Positions 13,203-54,636 of a DNA stretch of 64,000 bases are shown here, piece after piece. The position numbers were made by a program, and so were the translations under genes. Under the pieces are notes generated by a model. It searched no databases. It saw only the letters and a list, made by a program, of their open reading frames with translations, and was not told where the DNA came from. The stretch's first letter is position 1, and each line of letters opens with the position of its first letter. This DNA is from Octopus vulgaris (lineage: Eukaryota), in contig OX597814.1 of the NCBI GenBank assembly GCA_951406725.2, positions 131,006,001 to 131,070,000 on the forward strand, in the 5' to 3' direction.

Positions 13203-13672
13203 CATAATTAATATTATGGAAGTGTTTAAAAGTATTTCAAAGCTTTTCGACTCCAGCAAGTAGAAGACATAGAAAAGGCGTACAGAAAAAAAGTTACACA
13301 AAAAAGATATGAATGCATAAAAGAAGTCCACCTCTGCTTCCCCACCCCCACCACCACGCACATTCTCCCGCTCTCTCTCTCCTTCTTTCTTCCTTTCTTT
13401 CTTTCTTTCTTTCTACCTTTCCCTCTAAATCCATTACGTATTGAGAAAGGGCATAGGCAACGACTTAGAGTAGTACTTACTCCAGAAGTAAAAAGTACAG
13501 GGCAAGGGTCTTCCAACTTTTCCTCGTTGAAAGACTCCTATCTTCCTGATATGCTCCAAAGTCTCCCCAATGTGCAAAACATCATAGGACGACCTAATGG
13601 GACCATCTCGAGCGTCAAACTGCTTGTTGTTTATACATCTGTCTTCGTCTTTTGTTTTTCTGTAAATTTCAG

Positions 13673-13707
<35 letters not shown>

Positions 13708-24870: not shown

Positions 24871-24918
<48 letters not shown>

Positions 24919-24968
24919 CAAAAGATTGTACAGCAGCTAACCTGGCTCCATCAAACTCAAACTCGCAG

Positions 24969-26000
24969 ATGGAACTATCCACAATACACAAGACCGCCAC
25001 AGCAAATAGACCCAAGGTGGACACCGCCGGCAACAGCATACACCTCACCTCGATACTCCTACTGAACATCAGAGGACTGCTAACACTCAGTAATAGGACA
25101 AAAATCCCGTTCTTGAGAGACTTTGTTTCATGCAATCAAGCCTTATGCATAGCACTTACGGAAACACACCTGAAACCGGACATAGCAGATGTGGAATTAC
25201 ACATACCACAGTATGTTGTACTACGGACAGACAGAAAAGAAAAGAGTCATGGAGGAGTTGCTATGTACATCCGTGAGGACCTCACACCCCAGGTCCTTTT
25301 GTCATACTCAAACTCGGTGTGTGACACACTAATTGTACATGTAAGGCAACTTGGTGTAGTTGTGTGTGCTACATATCGCCCTCCAGATGCCCCAAGCCAT
25401 GTAGGCAAGTTTGAAGACTGCCTTATAAAAATAGAAGTTTTAGTCACATTAGAACAACACATAAGTGTACTTCTTATGGGAGACTTCAATCTACCCAATG
25501 TCAGATGGCCCGAGGGCCTTTCTCTCCCAGGAATGACTCGATGTGAACGAGGACAGGCGAGGTCCTTCCTGAACCTCATCAACACCCTGTACATGAAGCA
25601 AGTAATACTCCAACCAACCAGGACAGGTAACATACTGGATCTCTGCTTCACAAATAATATGGATCTCATCCATAATGTGAAAGTGACACCGACACTAATC
25701 TCGGATCACAACATGGTAGAGCTGACCATGTACGAGCCAAAGAAAAGCATGGACATGCAGCCTACAAGAAACTCTCAGAATCTTTCCAGCTTGAACTTCC
25801 ATAAGGCAAACTGGAAACAAATTGAGAAAGAGATCCTCAAACAAAACTGGCCTGAATGTCTCTCCTCGCCAGACATCGACATGAAACTTCAACAATTCAT
25901 GTCTGTAATGCAAGCAATATGCTACAAATGTGTCCCGGAGAGAAAGGCCACTGTACACAAGAACAAAATCCCCAGAGAGAGGAAAATTCTAATGAGATAG
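24969..26000 (+). pseudogene. LINE ORF2 APE endonuclease portion (premature stop at 26000)
   Basis: 343-aa ORF with the full APE motif set. Confidence 0.9.
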
Positions 26001-26059
26001 CGTACAAAAGTTTCAAATCGCCTAAACAAACAAATTGAAAGCAGTGAAAGAGCTTCCTT

Positions 26060-27534
26060 GCAACTGGCAAACTTCCAAGAAAACTGAAGGAAGGTAAAAT
26101 ATGCCCTATTCATAAAGGAGGTAGCAGAGCGGAGGCCAAGAACTACAGACCTATCTCTCTGACCTCACACATCAGCAAGGTCATGGAACGAATAGTCAGA
26201 AGGAAACTAATCACCTTCCTTGAAGAAAATGACTTGCTGCCTGACACCCAACATGGTTTCCGACCAGGAAGAAGCTGCTTAATTCTCAGCTCCTACAACA
26301 CTATGACTGGGTGCTGAAACGACTGCTCAACCACTCAAATGTGGAAGTGATATATATATCTCGACTTTGCAAAGGCCTTTGATAAAGTCGATCATGGAAT
26401 GATATGCCACAAACTGCGTGATCTTGGCATAGTTGGAAAATTGGGAGAATGGCTTCATGACTTTCTGAAGGATAGAAGTCAGGTGGTAGTAGCCAATGGG
26501 TCCACTTCCATTAACGCGCAAATAGTGCGCGGTGTTCCGCAGGGCACTGTTTTGGGACCACTACTGTTCATAATGGCCCTCTCAGACATGCCCTCAACCA
26601 CGCAGAGAGCCACGATCACAAGTTATGCAGATGATACAAAAGTTTCACAGGTAATACAGAACCCTGAAGACATTAAGCACCTGCAATGTGAGCTGGACAA
26701 AATATACAAGTGGGCTGAAAAGAATAGCATGCAGTTCAATGCTGAAAAGTTTCAAGCTTTATGCTATCAGCATGCAAAACTAAATGCAATACCCAATGAA
26801 TACACTGGACCTGGAGGGATTGCAATCCCAGAGGCACAATCAGTGCGTGACCTGGGTATTTACATGAGTGATGACGCAACCTTTCATGTACATGTTGCTA
26901 AATTGGCAATGAAATGTAGGTGGCTGGCCGGATGGATTCTTAAAACCTTTAGAACAAGAGACTAAGAAACCATGATGGTCCTCTGGAGGCACTTGTCCTA
27001 AGCCACTTTGACTATTGCTCTCAGCTATGGTCACCATCCAGTGTTAAGTTGATCACAGAACTTAAGGCGATCCAACGAAGCTACACGAAGAAGATAGCCT
27101 CTGTGCAGCATATAAGCTACTGAGAAAGACTCAAGAGATTAAGACTCTATTCCTTAGAGCGTAGGCGAGAAAGATTTGCCATAATATACATCTGGAAGAT
27201 CCTAGAAGGACTTGTCCCAAACTTTGGCATCGAGAGTTACACAAATGCCAGAACTGGGCGCCACTGCGTGGTGCCAAGGACTCCAAATTTGCCATCAAGA
27301 TGTAGGACAAGATACTGTGATAGCCTGGGCTTCAGAGGCCCACAGCTCTTCAATATCCTCCCGAAGAACCTGAGGGACCTGCATGGGGTGGATGCAGATG
27401 TCTTTAAAGTAGGACTGGATCTCTTCCTGTCAGGTGTCCCAGATGAACCAACTTCACGGCAGGAGGTGCAGATGAGGGCAGCTGCATCGAACTCTCTCGT
27501 GCACCAAATGGCAGTTGCTAAAATGCATTCGTGA
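26060..27534 (+). pseudogene. LINE ORF2 reverse transcriptase and C-terminus, frameshifted
   Basis: ORFs 26399-26965 and 27268-27534 plus intervening broken frames. Confidence 0.9.
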
Positions 27535-28230: not shown

Positions 28231-28486
28231 TAGCCTTTGCACAGCTTCTAACGCTAGAGATGTACTACGGTGTCAGCCTTGCTATATTGTCGTGGCATCT
28301 CTTATATTCCTTTTGGGCTAGTGGCGTACATTGGCTGGTAATATGACAAACGGTTTCAATATTTTGTTCACAGATTCTACACTTATCACTTTCTGATGTG
28401 TTGTCTATTCTATATTTTATATAGTTTGTTCTTAGTGCTTGCTCTTGGGCAGCACAGATTAGAGCCTCCGTTTCCAGTTTTAAATT
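28231..28486 (-). mobile_element. R4/Dong-like fragment: CCHC region joined directly to the 3' UTR
   Basis: LKLETEALICAAQEQALRTNYIKYRID..DKCRICEQNIETVCHITSQCTPLAQKEY..HDNIAR; 3' UTR GCCTTTGCACAGCTTCTAACGCT shared with 7620; abuts (TAA)n. Confidence 0.88.
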
Positions 28487-28794
28487 ACAAACAACATGCT
28501 GCCTTCGCTTCAGATTAGAAGCTACTAAGGTGCCAGGAAGAAAGACTTGTTACAGATTTTGCTTATCACTGTTTTATGGGGTCAGTTTTAATTGATTTCT
28601 GTCAACTCCCTCAGCCCTACCCCAACAGACACTGCTCCTTGTTCTCTCGGCCTTAGATATACAAAGATTTGATAAAACTAGTCTATAAATTAAAACTAAC
28701 CCCATAAAGCAGTGATAAGCAAACTCTATAACAAGTCTTTCTTCCTAATACCTTAGTAGCTTCTAAGCTGAAGCGAAGCCAGCATGTTCTTTGT
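28487..28794. mobile_element. MITE/foldback element with about 110-bp imperfect TIRs
   Basis: ACAAACAACATGCTG..TTAGAAGCTACTAAGGT / ACCTTAGTAGCTTCTAA..CAGCATGTTCTTTGT. Confidence 0.85.
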
Positions 28795-29075
28795 CTATCT
28801 CCTTAACTTCTTGGAGATTTTAAGTAAACTTATACTAATGTGTCCATCTGTTTTAATTTAATTAAATTCTATGTCTTTGTGCAGCTGAGGATTGCTTTGC
28901 ATTTAAATTGATGTAATGGTTGCATTGTTCAATTAAATGGAGTTGCGTGAAACGATCGTACTGCATTACCTCTGGATATCCTTGTTGCTTATTTTGGTTT
29001 TCATCACCTTATTTTGAAATTGTATGGATAATACCGTATTGGTGCCTCAACTTAAGTACCATATTCATCTGAATC

Positions 29076-29152
<77 letters not shown>

Positions 29153-30714: not shown

Positions 30715-31450
30715 ATTCTTTTCTACTCTAGGCACAAGGTCCGAAATTTTGGGTGGGGGAACCAGTTGACCTCAGTGCACAACAGGTATTTCATTTATCG
30801 ACCGCGAAAGGATGAAAGGCAATGTCGACCTCGGTGGAATTTGAACTCAGAACATAAAGACAGACGAAATACCTATTTCTTTACTACCCACAGAGAGGAC
30901 AAACAAGGACAGACAAACGGATTAAGTCGATTATATCGACCCCAGTGCGTAACTGCTACTTATTTAATCGGCCCCGAAAGGATGAAAGGCAAAGTCGACC
31001 TCGACGGAATTTGAACTCAGAACGTAGCGGCAGACGAAATACCTATTTCTTTACTACCCACAAGGGGCTAAACACAGAGGGGACAAACAAGAACAGACAT
31101 AGGTATTAAGTCGATTACATCGAACCCAGTGCTTAACTGGTACTTAATTTATCGACCCCGAAAGGATGAAAGGCAATGTCGACCTCGGCGGAATTTGAAC
31201 TCAGAACATAAAGACAGACGAAATACCTATTTCTTTACTACCCACAAGGAGCTAAACACAGAGAGGACAAACAAGGACAGACAAACGGATTAAGTCGATT
31301 ATATCGACCCCAGTGCGTAACTGGTACTTATTTAATCGGCCCCGAAAGGATGAAAGGCAAAGTCGACCTCGGCGGAATTTGAACTCAGAACGTAGCGGCA
31401 GACGAAATACCGCTAAGCATTTCGCCCGGCGCGCTAACGATTCTGCCTTA
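30715..31450 (-). mobile_element. Tandem head-to-tail array of four SINE family A units
   Basis: About 170-185 bp unit; TTGAACTCAGAAC recurs at about 30841, 31011, 31195 and 31379. Confidence 0.92.
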
Positions 31451-33152: not shown

Positions 33153-33210
33153 GCCATGATACATCGGTAGCCACTACACACATTTTTTCTCTCCTTGTTT
33201 TTCTGTGTCC

Positions 33211-33246
33211 CTTTCTGTGGAAGAGCGTAGGATCGAAATGTAAAAG
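33211..33246 (+). ncRNA. Degenerate minimal hammerhead-like motif (same family as 45948)
   Basis: cttt CTGTGGA A gagc gtag gatc GAAAT GTA aaag. Confidence 0.5.
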
Positions 33247-33294
33247 ACTTTTTCAATTCCGCTATGGTCTTACCACTAAGAAACTTTCTTGAGA

Positions 33295-43945: not shown

Positions 43946-44731
43946 TTGGATATTTTCGGTTTGAACAGCAGTTTTTAACATAATTTCTAGGTAACTAAAA
44001 AATTTTAAACTTCGTATACTGGTAGAATGTGTTTATAAAACATCTTTTTCTCTTGGCTTTCTTGAGAAAATTCTGTAGTTTGTAACATATTTGTTGTTTA
44101 ATTTCTTGCATTTCGGCAATTTCAACCAATCACTTTTAACTATTGAGTTAAAAAGCATTCTGTGCCGTATGAATATGTCCCTCGTTTAAGAAACACATTG
44201 GGTTTATTTACATTTGTGAAGAAAAAAAGATGCCCTTCCCCCACCCCTAACCCTAACTAACTCTAAATCTAAAATAGACACCGCTAAAAAAACTGCCGTT
44301 TTTTCTAGCGGTGTCATATGAAATTGTCACCCATAATTATGACCCTAGAATCGATCTATTGCATTTCAATCTATTTTCGATTTAGGGTTAGTTAGGGTTA
44401 GGGTTAGGGTTAGGATTAGAGTTAGGGTTAGGGGTGGGGGAAGGGTATCTTTTTTCTTCACAAATGTAAATAAACCCAATGTGTTTCTTAAACGAGGGAC
44501 ATATTCATACGGCACAGAATGTTTTCACCTCAATAGACGGTCATTGATTGGTTGAAATTGCCGAAATGCAAGAAATTAAAGACCAAATATGTTACAAACT
44601 ATAGAATTTTCTCAATAAAGCCAAAAGAAAATGATGTTTTATAAACACATTCTACCAGTATACGAAGTCTAAACTTTTTTAGTTACCTAGAAATTATGTT
44701 AAAAACTGCCGTTCAAACCGAAAAGGTCCCC
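43946..44731. mobile_element. Foldback/MITE-like element with about 330-bp inverted arms ending internally in telomeric repeats
   Basis: TTTTCGGTTTGAACAGCAGTTTTTAACATAATTTCTAGG.. / ..CCTAGAAATTATGTTAAAAACTGCCGTTCAAACCGAAAA; CCCTAA repeats at about 44245-44270, TTAGGG repeats at about 44382-44432. Confidence 0.92.
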
Positions 44732-44819
44732 ATATTTATATGCTATTATTTATAGCATGAAATGTACTTCGAGAACCAATATTGCAATAAAGAGTTATAT
44801 ATATATATATATATATGTA

Positions 44820-45045
44820 TATGTTTGCATGTCTGTGTTTCTCCCCTCACCCTACCATCGCTTGACAACCGATGTTGGTGTGTTTGCCTCCCCGTAACTT
44901 AGCAGTTCGGAAAAAAGACAGATAGAATAAGTACTAGGCTTACAAAGAATAATTCCTGGGGTCGATTTGTTCGACTAAAGGCGGTGCTCCAGCATGGCCG
45001 CAGTGAAATGACTGGAACAAATAAAAAAAATAAATAAAAGAATAA
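44820..45045 (+). mobile_element. SINE family B 3' half
   Basis: Consensus match. Confidence 0.85.
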
Positions 45046-45587
45046 GTGGGGTTACAATCAGACAATCATGAGGGTAGATAGAAGAATGAGTGAAAAGGCA
45101 TATCTATTCTAATGATGTCATTAAACATATCGACATCACTCACAAATGCTGGTACTGCCAAAACAGACTTGTATAGCTTCAGATAGCAGGCAACAAGCAT
45201 GATATTTGATCCTAACAAACCCTATTGAAAATCGTTGTCGATGTAGTTCTAAAAAAAGACATTTATTGTATTATATTGTTTGGTACATTAAAAGAGTGAC
45301 ATGGTTAATAAATTTGAACGTCACTTATGCATTTACTTAATTTCTCTTGATTGAAGTACTCCGATGAATAATTAATGCAGAACTAATAGAGTATTAGTTT
45401 TAATTAAGGGAGATCCAGTTAATTTACTATTCAGGGGGAAAACGCCGAGAATAGCGAAGGTCTCAGCTAATTTCAGAGAAGAGGGAGAGAGAAAAAATAG
45501 GAGGGAGACGAAAAAGAAGAAAAGAAAATAATTATACAGAAAGCGATTTGAAATAGAACGACCTCCTATTTTATCAAGGCCTACAAT

Positions 45588-45687
<100 letters not shown>

Positions 45688-45947
45688 GCATAAAAATTAA
45701 AGTAAAAACAAAAGCAACAGAAATCGAAAAGACGTACACAATAAATGTGTTGGATTGGCGCTCGGTTTTAGATGGAAAAAAAGAGGTGGATGTAATTTTT
45801 CGAGTATAGCTCTACGTCAGAATAAGGAGAGCGAAGGGGAAAAAAGTAAAAAAAAAACACATGTGCGGTTACATGGCTGAAGCGATATATTTTTTTTCTC
45901 TCCTTTTTTTTTCTTTCCTTGTTTCTCTCCTTGTTTTTTCTGTGTCC

Positions 45948-45983
45948 CTTTCTGTAGAAGAGCGTAGGCTCGAAACGTAAAAG
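45948..45983 (+). ncRNA. Minimal type-I hammerhead-like motif (A6U variant)
   Basis: cttt CTGTAGA A gagc gtag gctc GAAAC GTA aaag: stem I cttt/aaag, stem II gagc/gctc, GUA triplet. Confidence 0.65.
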
Positions 45984-46352
45984 ACTTTTTTCTATTCCTG
46001 AGCGTTATACTAATACATCTGTTTGTTTTGTACACCACCTGTCTTCGTCTTTTGTCTTTTTCGTAAACTCTCCCTATATATTTATACATATATATATATA
46101 TATATATAATTAATTAAGGGTAGAAATTGATATTTATCAATTAAGACCAGTGGTCTAGCATATTAAAAAAGAATCCGAAGATTAAAATATTTATATATAC
46201 CAATTAAGGACTGAACACGAAAAGTGGACAGTCAACATGCTAGATATAGACGTCAAATCGTCATTCACCACAAAAGATTATGTTCTCAGATCAAACTCAA
46301 CACAAAACCATAGCAATAAACAAGTGAAAAATATACGAAATAAAATAATTAC

Positions 46353-46417
46353 CCATGTACTAACTTAGTTTCAGCTGTTATTTTCCGCAAGGAAAACTGC
46401 AGCCATCATCAGCATGG
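46353..46417 (-). ncRNA. Type-I hammerhead ribozyme, intact core
   Basis: Minus strand ccatg CTGATGA T ggctg cag ttttcc ttgc ggaaaa taa cagct GAAAC taagtta GTA catgg: stem I ccatg/catgg, stem II ggctg/cagct extended by ttttcc/ggaaaa, stem III ACTAA/TTAGT. Confidence 0.85.
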
Positions 46418-46889
46418 TCCGTTATAAATGTAATTTGCTGGACTAGATGCAAACACGATACCGAAATATCGCGTGCATGGAGTTCAGCCTATTACATTTG
46501 AATATATCTTTCAAATGCCTTTACTTTGGCGCGTTGAAACCCGAGAAAACTAGCCTGCAGCTAATAATTAGCAGCAGTTAATTTATCGGTTAGAGAACAT
46601 ATTTATTTATATAAAATTAATTAAGGGTAGAAATTGAGTCTATATCTAGCATGTTGACTGTCCACTTTTATATATATATATATATATATACAAAATAAGA
46701 AAATGGAGAAACACATCTTAATCAATGATCAACTACCAGATAATACCCAATCACATAATTTATGAAACTACTACATATGAACATTAAAGTCAAACATTAT
46801 ATTATATATTATATATTATGGGTATGTACCCACTATTGTATGGATGTACCCCCTCTGATTTTCATATTTAATTTAGTTTGTTCTTCATA

Positions 46890-47016
46890 ATCTCTGAAGA
46901 GGCCTTGAGATATTTTTGTTAGTGTCTCATTTATAACTACATATTAACCTATCACACATGACTAATATGAGCATAATGAGGCACCCATATCTGCATGGCT
47001 GAAACAGCTGTAAGAT
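46890..47016 (+). ncRNA. Type-I hammerhead ribozyme, intact core, long stem-II insertion
   Basis: atct CTGAAGA ggcc [about 90 nt including hairpin tgagatat/gtgtctca] ggct GAAAC AGCT GTA agat; palindromic stem III ACAGCTGT. Confidence 0.78.
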
Positions 47017-47396
47017 GTAGTTTATATTTATATTTGTATTTATTATATTCACTTATACATACTGTACTTATTGTATCATATTACTCTTTCATGTACATTA
47101 TTTTGTTCTATATTATTATGTTTGACCTTAATGTTCATATGTAGTGGTTTAATAGATTATGTGATTGGGTATTATCTGGTAGTTGATCATTGATTAAGAT
47201 GTGTTTCTCCATTTTCTTATTTTGTATTATTAATTTGTGGTAAAACATTTTACCTTTGCCCATATAATACAGTAAATGAATTAACTGTATCGCAGTTCTT
47301 AACATTTATGTATTAACTTTGTTGGGTGCTTCACTAGCAGTATATTATATATGTGTTATCCCATGGAGGGTTGCACTTACAACCCCTATCTCAATT

Positions 47397-47493
<97 letters not shown>

Positions 47494-47510
47494 GTATATA
47501 TATGTATATA

Positions 47511-47627
47511 TAAATGCATCAGTAACACCCCCACCACACCGCCCTGACCCTAGCCACATTCAGATGGCTGATCCCTCTTATGTTATAGAACAGTTACTGT
47601 TTATATCTCGCCCAGAAATTTATTATT

Positions 47628-47679
<52 letters not shown>

Positions 47680-47947
47680 AATAATAAATTTCTGGGCAGA
47701 TATAAACAGTAACTGCTTATAACATAAGAGGATCAGCCATCTGAATGTGGCTAGGTCAGGGCGGTGGTGGTGTTACTGATGCATTAGCCCCAGGCGAACA
47801 TCGACGTCACCAGAAGAGCTGAAGGACACCGAGATGGTGTCAGCTCTTCTGGTGACGTCGATGTTCGCCTGTAAATGCATCAGTAACACCCCCACCACCC
47901 CGCCCTGACCCTAGCCACATTCAGATGGCTGATCCCTCTTATGTTAT
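47511..47947. repeat. Nested direct/inverted repeat complex around (TA)n
   Basis: Unit forward 47511-47630, inverted 47676-47786, palindrome 47791-47870, forward again 47872-47947. Confidence 0.92.
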
Positions 47948-47969
47948 ATATATATATATATATATATAT

Positions 47970-48185
47970 TCTTTTAATTACACTTTTGCTTGTTTCAGTC
48001 ATTTGACTGCGGCCATGATGGACCACCACCTTTAGTCGAGCAAATATCAATCTTAGAGCTTATTCTTTGTAAGCTTAGTACTTATTCTATTGGTCTCTAT
48101 TGCCGAACCGCTAAGTTACGGGGATGTAAACACACCAGCATCGGTTGTCAAGCGATGTTGGGGGGACAAACACAGACACAAGCAT

Positions 48186-48230
<45 letters not shown>

Positions 48231-48400
48231 CATATATATATTCTTTCTTTTCTTTCTTTTACTTGTTTCAGTCATTTGACTGCGGCTATGCTGGAGCACC
48301 ACCAGCATAGTCAAACAAATCGACCCCAGAGCTTACTCTTTATAACCGCTAAGTTACGGGGACGTAAACACATCAACATCGGTTGTCAAACGATGTTGTA
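47970..48400 (-). mobile_element. Two SINE family B 3' halves
   Basis: TTGTTTCAGTCATTTGACTGCGGC at 47990 and 48263. Confidence 0.82.
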
Positions 48401-48404
48401 TATA

Positions 48405-48435
<31 letters not shown>

Positions 48436-48464
48436 CAAAAGAAAAACAGGATGCAAAGGATTTT

Positions 48465-48551
48465 GCGGTGCATATGTTTCTGGCTTTATTGAACAATTTA
48501 TATCAATGCATAATTGATATAACATGTATGTCAACAGCCTTCTTCAGCCGC
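48465..48551 (-). ncRNA. Type-I hammerhead motif with mutated cleavage triplet (GCA)
   Basis: Minus strand gcgg CTGAAGA A ggct gttga..ttatatcaat tatgc attgatataa..tcaat aa agcc A GAAAC ATAT GCA ccgc. Confidence 0.72.
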
Positions 48552-48886
48552 GTAGAATTACCACACCAAAGACATGTATTACATTATAGTTGGTTTGAGA
48601 AAATGCTTGGGAATAAAACGAGTTTCATTGGGAAGGTAAATCCTCATAGTCATATATGGCATAGCGAGACACCAAAACAAAACGTCCATACCGTTTTTTC
48701 ACTCGATAAAGAATGAGGGGGTTAGATGTTGAGAGAAAGAGGGAAGGAGTGGAAGGGGGTGAATTTTTAATGAAGTTGAGATCACAAAGAGGAAAAAGTA
48801 TATGTATAAATTTAAACATGATTATACAGGATAATAGTAAGTGCAAAATGCAATAAAAGAGTAAAGATGTAAATAAATAAGAATAT

Positions 48887-48949
<63 letters not shown>

Positions 48950-49106
48950 CGACGGGCTTCTTCCAGTTTCCGTCAACCAAATCCTCTCACAAGGATTTGG
49001 TCGGCTCGAGGCTATAGCAAAAGACACTTGCCCAAGATGCCACGCAGTGTGACTGAACCCGGGACCATGTGGTTGGTATTTGACTGAGGCCATGCTGCAG
49101 TACCAC

Positions 49107-49142
<36 letters not shown>

Positions 49143-49162
49143 CCTGTCTATCTATCTATCTA

Positions 49163-49219
<57 letters not shown>

Positions 49220-49439
49220 GTCTGTCTGTCTATCTATCTTATCTATCTATCAGTTTGCTTGTCTGTAGACAGAGGGAGAAGAGAGGAAGAGGATGTTAAG
49301 AAAAGTTATAGAGTAGACCAGCAGAATAGCATCAATGAACAAGACAAACGATGTGAGTTAAATACCTAGTTCATCATAATATTCTTACTAAAATATTACT
49401 ATAACGCTCATATAATTGTAACCGTAGAATTTAAATGGT

Positions 49440-50129
49440 TCTCGTGATACTTCCCGATAATTTTCCCTACACATTACGTTATGAGTTCAAATCCCACTGG
49501 AGTCAACTTTGTTGGATTTTTTTTTTTTTTTTGTCCTTTCTGGGGTAGATAAAATAAAGTAGCACTCGAATACTATGGTATCGATTAAACCCCTCCATTC
49601 AAAATTGTTGATCTTGTGCCTAATTAATAAAGACGACGAACTAGCGGAAACTTCACTGTGTCGGACTAAATGCTTAGCGGTATTTCGTCTGCCGCTACGT
49701 TCTGAGTTCAAATTCCGCCGAGGTTGACTTTGCCTTTCATAAGTACCAGTTACGCACTGGGGTCGATATAATCGACTTAATCCGTTTGTCTCTTCTTGTG
49801 TGTCCTCTCTGTGTTTAGTCCCTTGTGGGTAGTAAAGAAATAGGTATTTCATCCAACTTTGCGTTCTGAGTGCAACTTTGCTTTTCATCGATAAAATAAA
49901 ATAGGAGTCAAATACCGAAATTGTGGGCATCGACTCACCCCGTCCCTTTGAGATGACTGGCCTTGTGACTGAAGCAGAAACCGTTATAATTCCGGCTCTT
50001 TACGTTCTGAGTTCAAATTCCGCCGAGGTTGACTTTGCCTTTCATCTTTTCAAGAAATAAGAACAAATTAGGCACCGAGGTCGATGTAATTAACATACCG
50101 CTTCCCCCTAATATTACTGGATTTGTGCC

Positions 50130-52299: not shown

Positions 52300-53200
52300 A
52301 GAAGTGAAATGTGTCTGGCGCTGTTGTCGTGGGTAATTGTCGTGGGTTAGCAAAAACGACAGTGTAGCATGCTGGAGTGATGCGCGATAGTACTACATTT
52401 CTTTTAACAAGCGACGCAACCCCTTAACCCAAGCACGGATGCCCTTGTTAATGTTTGTCCACAGAAAACGAGTTGATATCATCTTTTGTGTGGGACGAAT
52501 GCCAGGGTGTCACAGGCAGTGAAGGACAGTGAAAATACGTCGTCGGTATTGTTCAGGGACATAAGGGCGTTCGTGACCAGTGGAGGTATCGCACCATATC
52601 TGACAGGTAGAAGATAATGGGAACAGATGAAACTTGAGGGACGACGAATTCCGGTAATTATTAAGCTCTTCGTCGTTTTTCTGATCTGCCGTGATCAGGT
52701 AAAGATTGATAGTCTATGGAGTGTGTAAGGCGCTAAGATGGACGCGTGAAAGCGCGTCTGCTGCTGTGTTGTCTGAGCCTTTGATATGCCGAATATCTGT
52801 GGAATATTGGGCGATGAAGTCGAGGTGACGGACTTCTCTGGGAGAATAGCAGTCAGATCTTTTTCTAGCGGTTTATAGTCCGTGTAGATGCTGAAAACGG
52901 ACCCATCTAACATATGGCGGAAGTGCTTAACGGACAGATACGCAACCAGTAGCTCACGTCCAAAAGTACTGTATTTAGCCTCCGCAGGCTGAAGACGTTT
53001 GGTAAAAAAAGGATAATGGTTGCCAAACGCCAGCCACCAACTGCTGAAGGACACTACCAACTCCAGACATGGACGCATCAACCAGTGAAGTGAGGTAAAC
53101 CAGCGCCATGGCCCTAACTAGCATATCCTTTAGTTTATTGAAGGAGACCAGCTCTGCGTCACCTAAAGTTGTAACCTGTCTCTTCGTTTTGTTGCGCAGA
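52300..53200 (-). mobile_element. Ty3/Gypsy pol remnant (RNase H, integrase Zn-binding region; integrase core apparently deleted)
   Basis: VDAS..GVGSVLQQ..WQPLSFF; KRLQPAEAKYSTFGRELL.AYLSVKHFRHML.G..F.IYTD.KPL; RHLDFIAQYSTDIRHIKGSDNTAADALSR; LH.L.HPGIRPT. Confidence 0.93.
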
Positions 53201-54300: not shown

Positions 54301-54636
54301 TTTGAGTAAATGCTATGCACAATAGCGAATGTAGAAACTGCTGTTGTAATATAAGAATGAATCGTTATTTTGGGTATAAGAATGGCAGATTGGGTATTCA
54401 TAGCTGATGATGTGTAACAAGGCAGAAACATATGCGTCCTATGATCCAATGACGTCATTCACAGCCCAATATGTTTTCATGCATGTTATCGAGGAGAAGT
54501 TTCTTTCGAGACTATATTCGCAGCGGAGAATACTCGTTGTGTTAAATATGACTACACAGAAGTATTTCAATCAATGCTCCTAAGCACATACACGCACACA
54601 TACCCACACACATACGACACGAGCGCGCATATCTGC

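Follow-up and report, generated by a model that had tools for sequence, protein, structure and literature searches.

Solo hammerhead-ribozyme repeats stacked in (TA)n at an Octopus vulgaris locus, most likely ends or short derivatives of Penelope-like elements

How does a stretch of 3 kb in an octopus genome come to hold several hammerhead ribozymes (HHRs) on alternating strands? The stretch in question (45700-48710) belongs to a 64,000-nucleotide piece of Octopus vulgaris contig OX597814.1, hereafter the window, to which all positions refer. A sequence-only reading had proposed five type-I HHRs in short non-coding elements, most of them bounded by (TA)n, and had ascribed them to a Penelope- or retrozyme-like system. 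Our analysis suggests, with a probability of about 0.8, that the cluster arose by separate insertion events involving at least four HHR repeats; these most likely come from Penelope-like elements (PLEs), as pseudo-LTR (pLTR) ends or as short non-autonomous derivatives, and full-length PLEs elsewhere in the genome probably supplied the RT/GIY-YIG proteins that copied them into (TA)n.

Type-I hammerhead topologies in the cluster

We scanned 45700-48710 for type-I HHRs with a relaxed descriptor that tolerates a single additional base next to stem II and a single G-U pair, tolerances chosen post hoc, after the motifs were known. With at most one core mismatch, four topologies were found, at 45948-45983 (+), 46353-46417 (-), 46890-47016 (+) and 48465-48551 (-), in elements that we call A2, B, C and E, respectively. 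Dinucleotide shuffles of the same stretch (n=300) gave a mean of 0.013 matches, and no shuffle reached two. The five motif positions and the stem I pairings given earlier were correct, and the motif scan that had been suggested as a check recovers four of the five. The fifth motif, at 45790-45822 in element A1, is a decayed relative: A6 is retained, A9 is replaced, stem II has 3 bp, stem III is lacking and stem I is absent, with at most one pair. A strict scanner restricted to Watson-Crick pairs and allowing no extra base returned no HHR match. The Rfam search that had likewise been suggested gave no hammerhead at the gathering score, and at E<=10 over 44500-50000 it gave hairpin and microsatellite matches and no hammerhead.

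Across the whole window the exact HHR core was matched four times, in B, in C, at 28880-28965 (+) and at 54398-54444 (+). Permuted decoy cores gave no match in 178 of 179 cases and one match in the remaining case, so the HHR signal is not produced by repeats or hairpins. We also compared 45690-47398, a stretch that ends before E, at 80% likeness with the assembled contigs of 4 of 24 public sequencing runs. One contig of run X2 matches 45690-45930, across the junction of A1 and A2, with zero differences, which means that this stretch is no product of misassembly. A fortuitous origin of the motifs in AT-rich DNA, or an error of assembly, would be in keeping with the post hoc tolerances, the lack of an Rfam match and the scattered single-base deletions in one arm of a neighbouring fold-back element. 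Against this explanation stand the shuffle and decoy controls and the contigs from other runs, which agree with the window at the A1-A2 junction and in the HHR of B to within 0-1 differences, and we regard it as the least credible of the alternatives considered here. A2, B, C and E are genuine type-I HHR topologies.

The core CUGANGA...GAAA...UH is intact in B and C, the only two of the cluster in which it is; A2 carries A6U, E carries U16.1C and in A1 A9 is changed. Stems I and II pair in A2, B, C and E. Stem III had been described as palindromic or minimal in the four clearest motifs, and this holds: it is a perfect palindrome in A2 and C, a near-palindrome with a 1-nt loop in B and palindromic inside only in E, whereas A1 has none. 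The stem III segments are predicted to form self-duplexes of -8.6 kcal/mol in B and -11.1 kcal/mol in C while the monomer hairpin is not formed, and such self-pairing of the 15.1-16.1 segments is what would be expected of dimer-type HHRs. The monomer minimum-free-energy fold of C fails to yield an HHR. The stem II insertions of B (22 nt), C (92 nt), E (50 nt) and the motif at 28880 (49 nt) fold well, with z values of -2.6 to -4.8 relative to mononucleotide shuffles, and the 10.1-11.1 pair is G-U in both B and C.

Repeat families and insertion architecture of the locus

The cluster opens with A1 (45690-45835, minus strand), which alignment identifies as a decayed sister of A2 and whose 3' end lies at (GA)n/(GATA)n. 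A2 (45905-46074, plus strand) is an element of about 170 nt with its 3' end at a TA-rich run. Its minimal HHR has 4 bp in each of stems I and II, an extra base 9.1 and a palindromic 15.1-16.1 segment; core position 6 is a T (45955), and the predicted cut falls after 45979. A second copy at 33170-33262 (+) also has T at core position 6, with stems II and III damaged and the 3' part lost, and a 3'-only piece at 13610-13675 (+) ends at (TA)n. Upstream of A2 a pyrimidine tract (45890-45957, plus strand) runs into the HHR core, where it terminates in TAG, and resembles a splice acceptor; this likeness is probably due to chance because the second A2 copy has no AG. A (TA)n-type spacer (46075-46108) separates A2 from B, which are arranged tail to tail.

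B (46109-46668, minus strand) comprises a 507-nt ORF-less unit (46109-46615), a 22-nt direct copy and a 36-nt inverted copy. The 22 nt that precede the unit (46616-46637) repeat B's own 3' end (46109-46130), and the inverted copy at 46634-46668 corresponds to an internal stretch (46221-46256) that falls 111 nt short of the 3' end. The B HHR has 5 bp in stem I, 5 bp in stem II together with an inner hairpin, and a predicted cut between 46358 and 46357. Other B copies show a longer partial tandem (joint 46637->46167, run X2) as well as indels in loop 3, one of which renders the palindrome perfect. Beyond a (TA)n spacer (46669-46690) B meets C head to head.

C (46688-47398, plus strand) begins with an inverted 5' copy of 119 nt (46688-46806 = 47109-47227, 95%). 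Its HHR pairs 4 bp in stem I and 4 bp in stem II around the structured 92-nt insertion, and the predicted cut falls after 47012; two listed substitutions, at 46920 and 46922, would extend the inner hairpin as judged by eye. The element ends at 47398 in the window and at 47227 in other copies, 171 nt apart, and since 14 records of run X2 run on into (TA)n behind 47227, this position is a real second 3' end of C. A (TA)57 array follows at 47399-47512.

Inverted repeats of 36 and 119 nt with TA flanks would also suit MITE-like DNA transposons that have terminal inverted repeats, target TA and carry the HHR as cargo. In both elements, however, the right-hand repeat is internal, lying 111 or 171 nt from the end, B in addition repeats its 3' end in direct orientation, and A2 and E have no inverted repeat at all, so that a MITE origin of B and C is very unlikely.

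The array is followed by D (47510-47948), a fold-back element in which one end is present in three copies, with (TA)n within it and on both sides. D has two 3' ends 43 nt apart and no complete HHR. At its centre CTGAAG precedes a 6-bp hairpin and no GAAA follows, its tail length of 43 nt is a textbook PLE value, and the single-base deletions scattered through one arm are possibly long-read errors. Two copies of a repeat that we take to be SINE-like (47970-48398, plus strand), with (CA)n(TA)n between them and many matches across the window, are separate from the HHR elements. E (48436-48720, minus strand; 5' boundary approximate) has an HHR with 4 bp in stem I and 4 bp in stem II around the structured 50-nt insertion, and its 3' end lies 29 nt past stem I, adjoining (TA)n. 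The earlier statement that most elements are bounded by (TA)n is thus accurate for the 3' ends of A2, B, C and E and does not extend to A1.

Outside the cluster, an element at 28487-29077 (+) combines a 308-nt palindrome (28487-28794) with the intact-core HHR at 28880-28965, whose stem III is palindromic, and ends at (TA)n. It adjoins a non-LTR retrotransposon fragment (28268-28486, minus strand; weak zf-RVT match, E 0.021), presumably R4/Dong-like, beside (TTA)n. The intact-core motif at 54398-54444 has a 6-bp stem I, a weak stem II and a stem III that begins like E's. The window also contains a broken LINE (24873-27534, plus strand) with RT and APE endonuclease domains, its RT having an Octopus protein of 64% identity as best named relative (the one row of 120 that carried an organism name), an RNase H fragment of an LTR retrotransposon (52698-53117, minus strand; Pfam RT_RNaseH, E 1e-9), a short interstitial (TTAGGG)9 array (44382-44433) and 2.8 tandem copies of a SINE-like 184-nt unit (30889-31411).

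Contigs matching 45690-47398 numbered 28,694, 25,863, 10,105 and 1,728 in the four runs. Summed depth reached 4-5.7 million for A2 (X4/X2) and about 100-200 thousand for B right to its 5' end, and was merely 200-300 for A1 (X4, X2). Relative to the depth of a locus-specific contig (38, X2) these sums correspond to ~144,000 for A2, 5,200 for B, 2,900 for C and 8 for A1, values that are inflated by overlapping contigs and represent orders of magnitude rather than copy numbers. Apart from the A1/A2 pair, the elements have no sequence in common. A2, B and C are separate multi-copy repeat families, matched by thousands of contigs, and the proposal of distinct families is borne out.

A single system is not what we find: the insertions piled up in the cluster are independent and differ in strand, depth and sequence. 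Four of the six motifs lie within 2.6 kb, which is improbable under uniform placement (p ~0.004, calculated post hoc), and single contigs link A2-B and C-B sequence at other junctions, as might be expected if the cluster were a single Terminon-like composite with several ribozymes that is moved or transcribed whole. Such a unit is nonetheless highly improbable: the orientations alternate (-,+,-,+,-), neighbouring depths are four orders of magnitude apart, the parts have no common sequence, D and E are separated by SINE copies, and at 33170 A2 stands by itself.

Probable affiliation with Penelope-like elements

PLE insertions are marked by an inverted 5' copy, a partial tandem and an optional 3' tail of 30-40 bp (PMC8557442). 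An inverted, 5'-truncated copy of this type is present in B (36 nt), in C (119 nt) and at 28487-28794, and the pLTR-forming partial tandem is present in B and not in A2, C or E at this locus. Paired 3' ends are separated by 111 nt in B, 171 nt in C and 43 nt in D, so the tails of B and C exceed the published length. (TA)n adjoins the 3' ends of the 28880 element as well as those of A2, B, C and E. The expectation of a Penelope-like insertion style with a preference for (TA)n agrees with the inverted 5' copies, the two 3' ends, the partial tandem and the TA flanks.

The ribozymes themselves resemble the minimal HHRs of PLE pLTRs described by Cervera and de la Pena (2014, PMC4209133) in the extra base after A9, the short stem I and the palindromic stem III. 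Those HHRs occur as dispersed solo copies and as opposite-strand pairs 100-700 bp apart, and have low activity, dimers included (PMC4209133); solo dispersed copies, opposite-strand pairs (here A1/A2) and many families per genome recur in our data. The assignment to minimal type-I HHRs of the PLE kind is likewise consistent with PMC4209133 in the extra base after A9, the 4-5 bp of stem I and the palindromic 15.2-16.2. The octopus elements differ in their long structured stem II insertions (22, 92 and 50 nt, and 49 nt at 28880), in the G-U pair of B and C where PLE minimal HHRs usually have G10.1-C11.1, and in the A6U of A2, a core variant named in PMC4209133 being U3-A8.

Among PLEs, the Hydra clade, which is defined by RT/EN phylogeny and the motifs RWK and DKT, is close in form. 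Of the 27 rows for this clade in the PMC8557442 supplement, 26 give (TA)n as the target, and the HHRs of its members have a single-nucleotide loop III; one member, Hydra-1_Obim of Octopus bimaculoides, combines an HHR, a (TA)n preference and a 1-nt loop III (Craig et al. 2021, PMC8557442). The (TA)n target, an HHR near the 3' end and, in B, a stem III of 4-5 bp with a 1-nt loop are shared with this clade, and the inverted 5' copy with its member Penelope-13_HM (PMC8557442), whereas loops II of 3-10 nt in Hydra-clade PLEs contrast with the 22-92 nt insertions here. Hydra-1_Obim shows no sequence match by eye to our elements, which in addition lack an ORF. For PAc, a Poseidon element of Anolis, cutting of AT-rich DNA has been described, along with a tail as long as the two RT start sites are apart (PMC11167929). 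Two 3' ends and an AT-rich target are common to PAc and the octopus elements, and PAc has its HHR in the pLTR; it differs in being autonomous, with an ORF starting in stem II, and the tails here measure 111 and 171 nt (43 nt in D).

In this architecture the elements behave like PLE pLTR ends, and their proposed membership of the PLEs is founded on it. No convincing PLE RT or GIY-YIG motif was found in six frames of the window. The frames upstream of B and E were considered as relics of a GIY-YIG C-terminus and abandoned: Pfam gave no match for either, phmmer returned two unrelated tandem-repeat proteins and nothing else, and a word search for E's frame found no match. A loose GIY-YIG motif, composed after B had been seen, matched B alone in six frames. 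Nor were the anticipated shared termini with PLEs found: by eye, no element resembles the 3' ends of Hydra-1_Obim, Naiad_Obim or Naiad_Ovul, and three exact element motifs are absent from the octopus PLE 3' ends in the PMC8557442 supplement. In that supplement the Naiad_Obim and Naiad_Ovul 3' ends carry a core-like CTGTTGA motif with U at position 6, a 6-bp stem lettered like D's hairpin and then GAAAC, with no stems I or III by eye. Searches with A2 patterns in viral, metagenome and prokaryote genome collections gave 0 matches. A pattern from C hit five metagenome loci, which were set aside as chance, with no CUGANGA within 140 nt upstream and no match longer than 23 nt.

Solo monomers of non-LTR retrozymes, in which the HHRs of short tandem units release linear and circular RNAs that are then reverse-transcribed, offer another account. 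Since retrozymes presumably descend from PLE pLTRs, the two readings overlap, and active processing into circles is what the retrozyme reading adds. The ORF-less 507-nt unit of B follows a copy of its own 3' end, the depth of B stays at ~100-200 thousand to the 5' end, and X2 contains the back-joint 46637->46167. Animal retrozymes are similarly short, non-coding, PLE-related and equipped with type-I HHRs (PMC7229834; bioRxiv 10.64898/2026.07.22.740005), and the monomer fractions of their families span 0 to 1 (bioRxiv 10.64898/2026.07.22.740005). However, an active retrozyme requires a tandem pair of same-family HHRs (bioRxiv 10.64898/2026.07.22.740005), of which the window has none; B exceeds the 150-450 bp units of PMC7229834, and the HHRs are minimal rather than canonical with a 6-bp helix I. 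The retrozyme label of the original proposal does not apply in the tandem sense within the window, where every HHR is a solo copy, and we consider a retrozyme origin unlikely, though the most serious of the alternatives.

Under the PLE reading, the stack could have formed as follows, in a scheme drawn from PMC8557442 and PMC11167929. A PLE RT/GIY-YIG protein acting in trans would bind the RNA and nick AT-rich DNA, and reverse transcription would start at either of two internal RNA sites, which would explain the two 3' ends. Template switching would give the inverted and partial-tandem 5' parts, and as every insertion would leave TA flanks that serve as the target for the next, the elements would stack. 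PLEs tend to insert into or beside earlier copies (PMC6765202). Nine of the 60 TA runs of the window fall in the cluster, which covers 5% of it, a concentration in which cause and effect are inseparable. For the intact HHRs of B and C, cleavage would be expected chiefly in dimeric form, in tandem copies at other loci, and we give an even chance that either cleaves as a dimer in vitro. At the locus itself cleavage is doubtful because each HHR is solo and the stem III sequences of its neighbours differ, and the B and C ribozymes here are probably inactive passengers.

The A6U core and a possible role of the hammerhead fold

The kind of element described here has already been published, octopus included (Hydra-1_Obim). 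For these particular families we found no earlier description in the open literature, while repeat databases and closed papers may list such variants. PLEs make up 6.83% of the O. vulgaris genome in 190 families (PMC13282606 supplement), and the words "hammerhead" and "ribozyme" are absent from the text of PMC13282606.

A2 has by far the greatest depth of the compared families and an alteration at a normally fixed catalytic base. T occupies core position 6 in both A2 copies of the window that include it (2/2), and the 40 substitutions listed, out of 157, all lie outside the cores and stems I-III of A2, B and C. These listed substitutions are apparently ranked by share (the lowest being 0.625 in 15 that were computed, the others judged by eye), so that at 45955 probably no single other letter exceeds ~62%, and a large minority of A is possible. 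The A6U reading of the family is based on the two window copies and on the lack of a majority change among the listed substitutions. We tentatively suggest, as a reading that is rather less likely than its converse, that A2 is a very high-copy PLE mini-element (order 10^4-10^5) that has spread with a crippled A6U core while keeping the HHR fold, the A6-bearing A1 being rare.

Cleavage by a natural A6C variant is slow (PMC3088659), PAc remains able to insert in vitro when its HHR is mutated (PMC11167929), and the function of HHRs in endonuclease-bearing PLEs is unclear (PMC8557442). The slow A6C variant and the inserting PAc mutants point to a possible function of the fold as a signal recognised by proteins. 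With long stem II insertions such as those in C, E and the element at 28880, PLE hammerheads would be undercounted by descriptors that assume short loops, and the undescribed HHR-bearing families would add to a known class in a lineage with a PLE genome share of ~7%. An A6U core in the family of greatest depth would suggest that the fold weighs more than cleavage. If A6U proves family-wide, A2 would be a catalytically impaired and yet very successful family, and the question would be testable in one genome. Should our reading of A2 be true, the PLE hammerhead would mainly provide a structure by which the RT-endonuclease recognises or packages the RNA, while cleavage could be dispensed with or would even act as a brake, and the octopus would represent a natural experiment on the role of PLE hammerheads.
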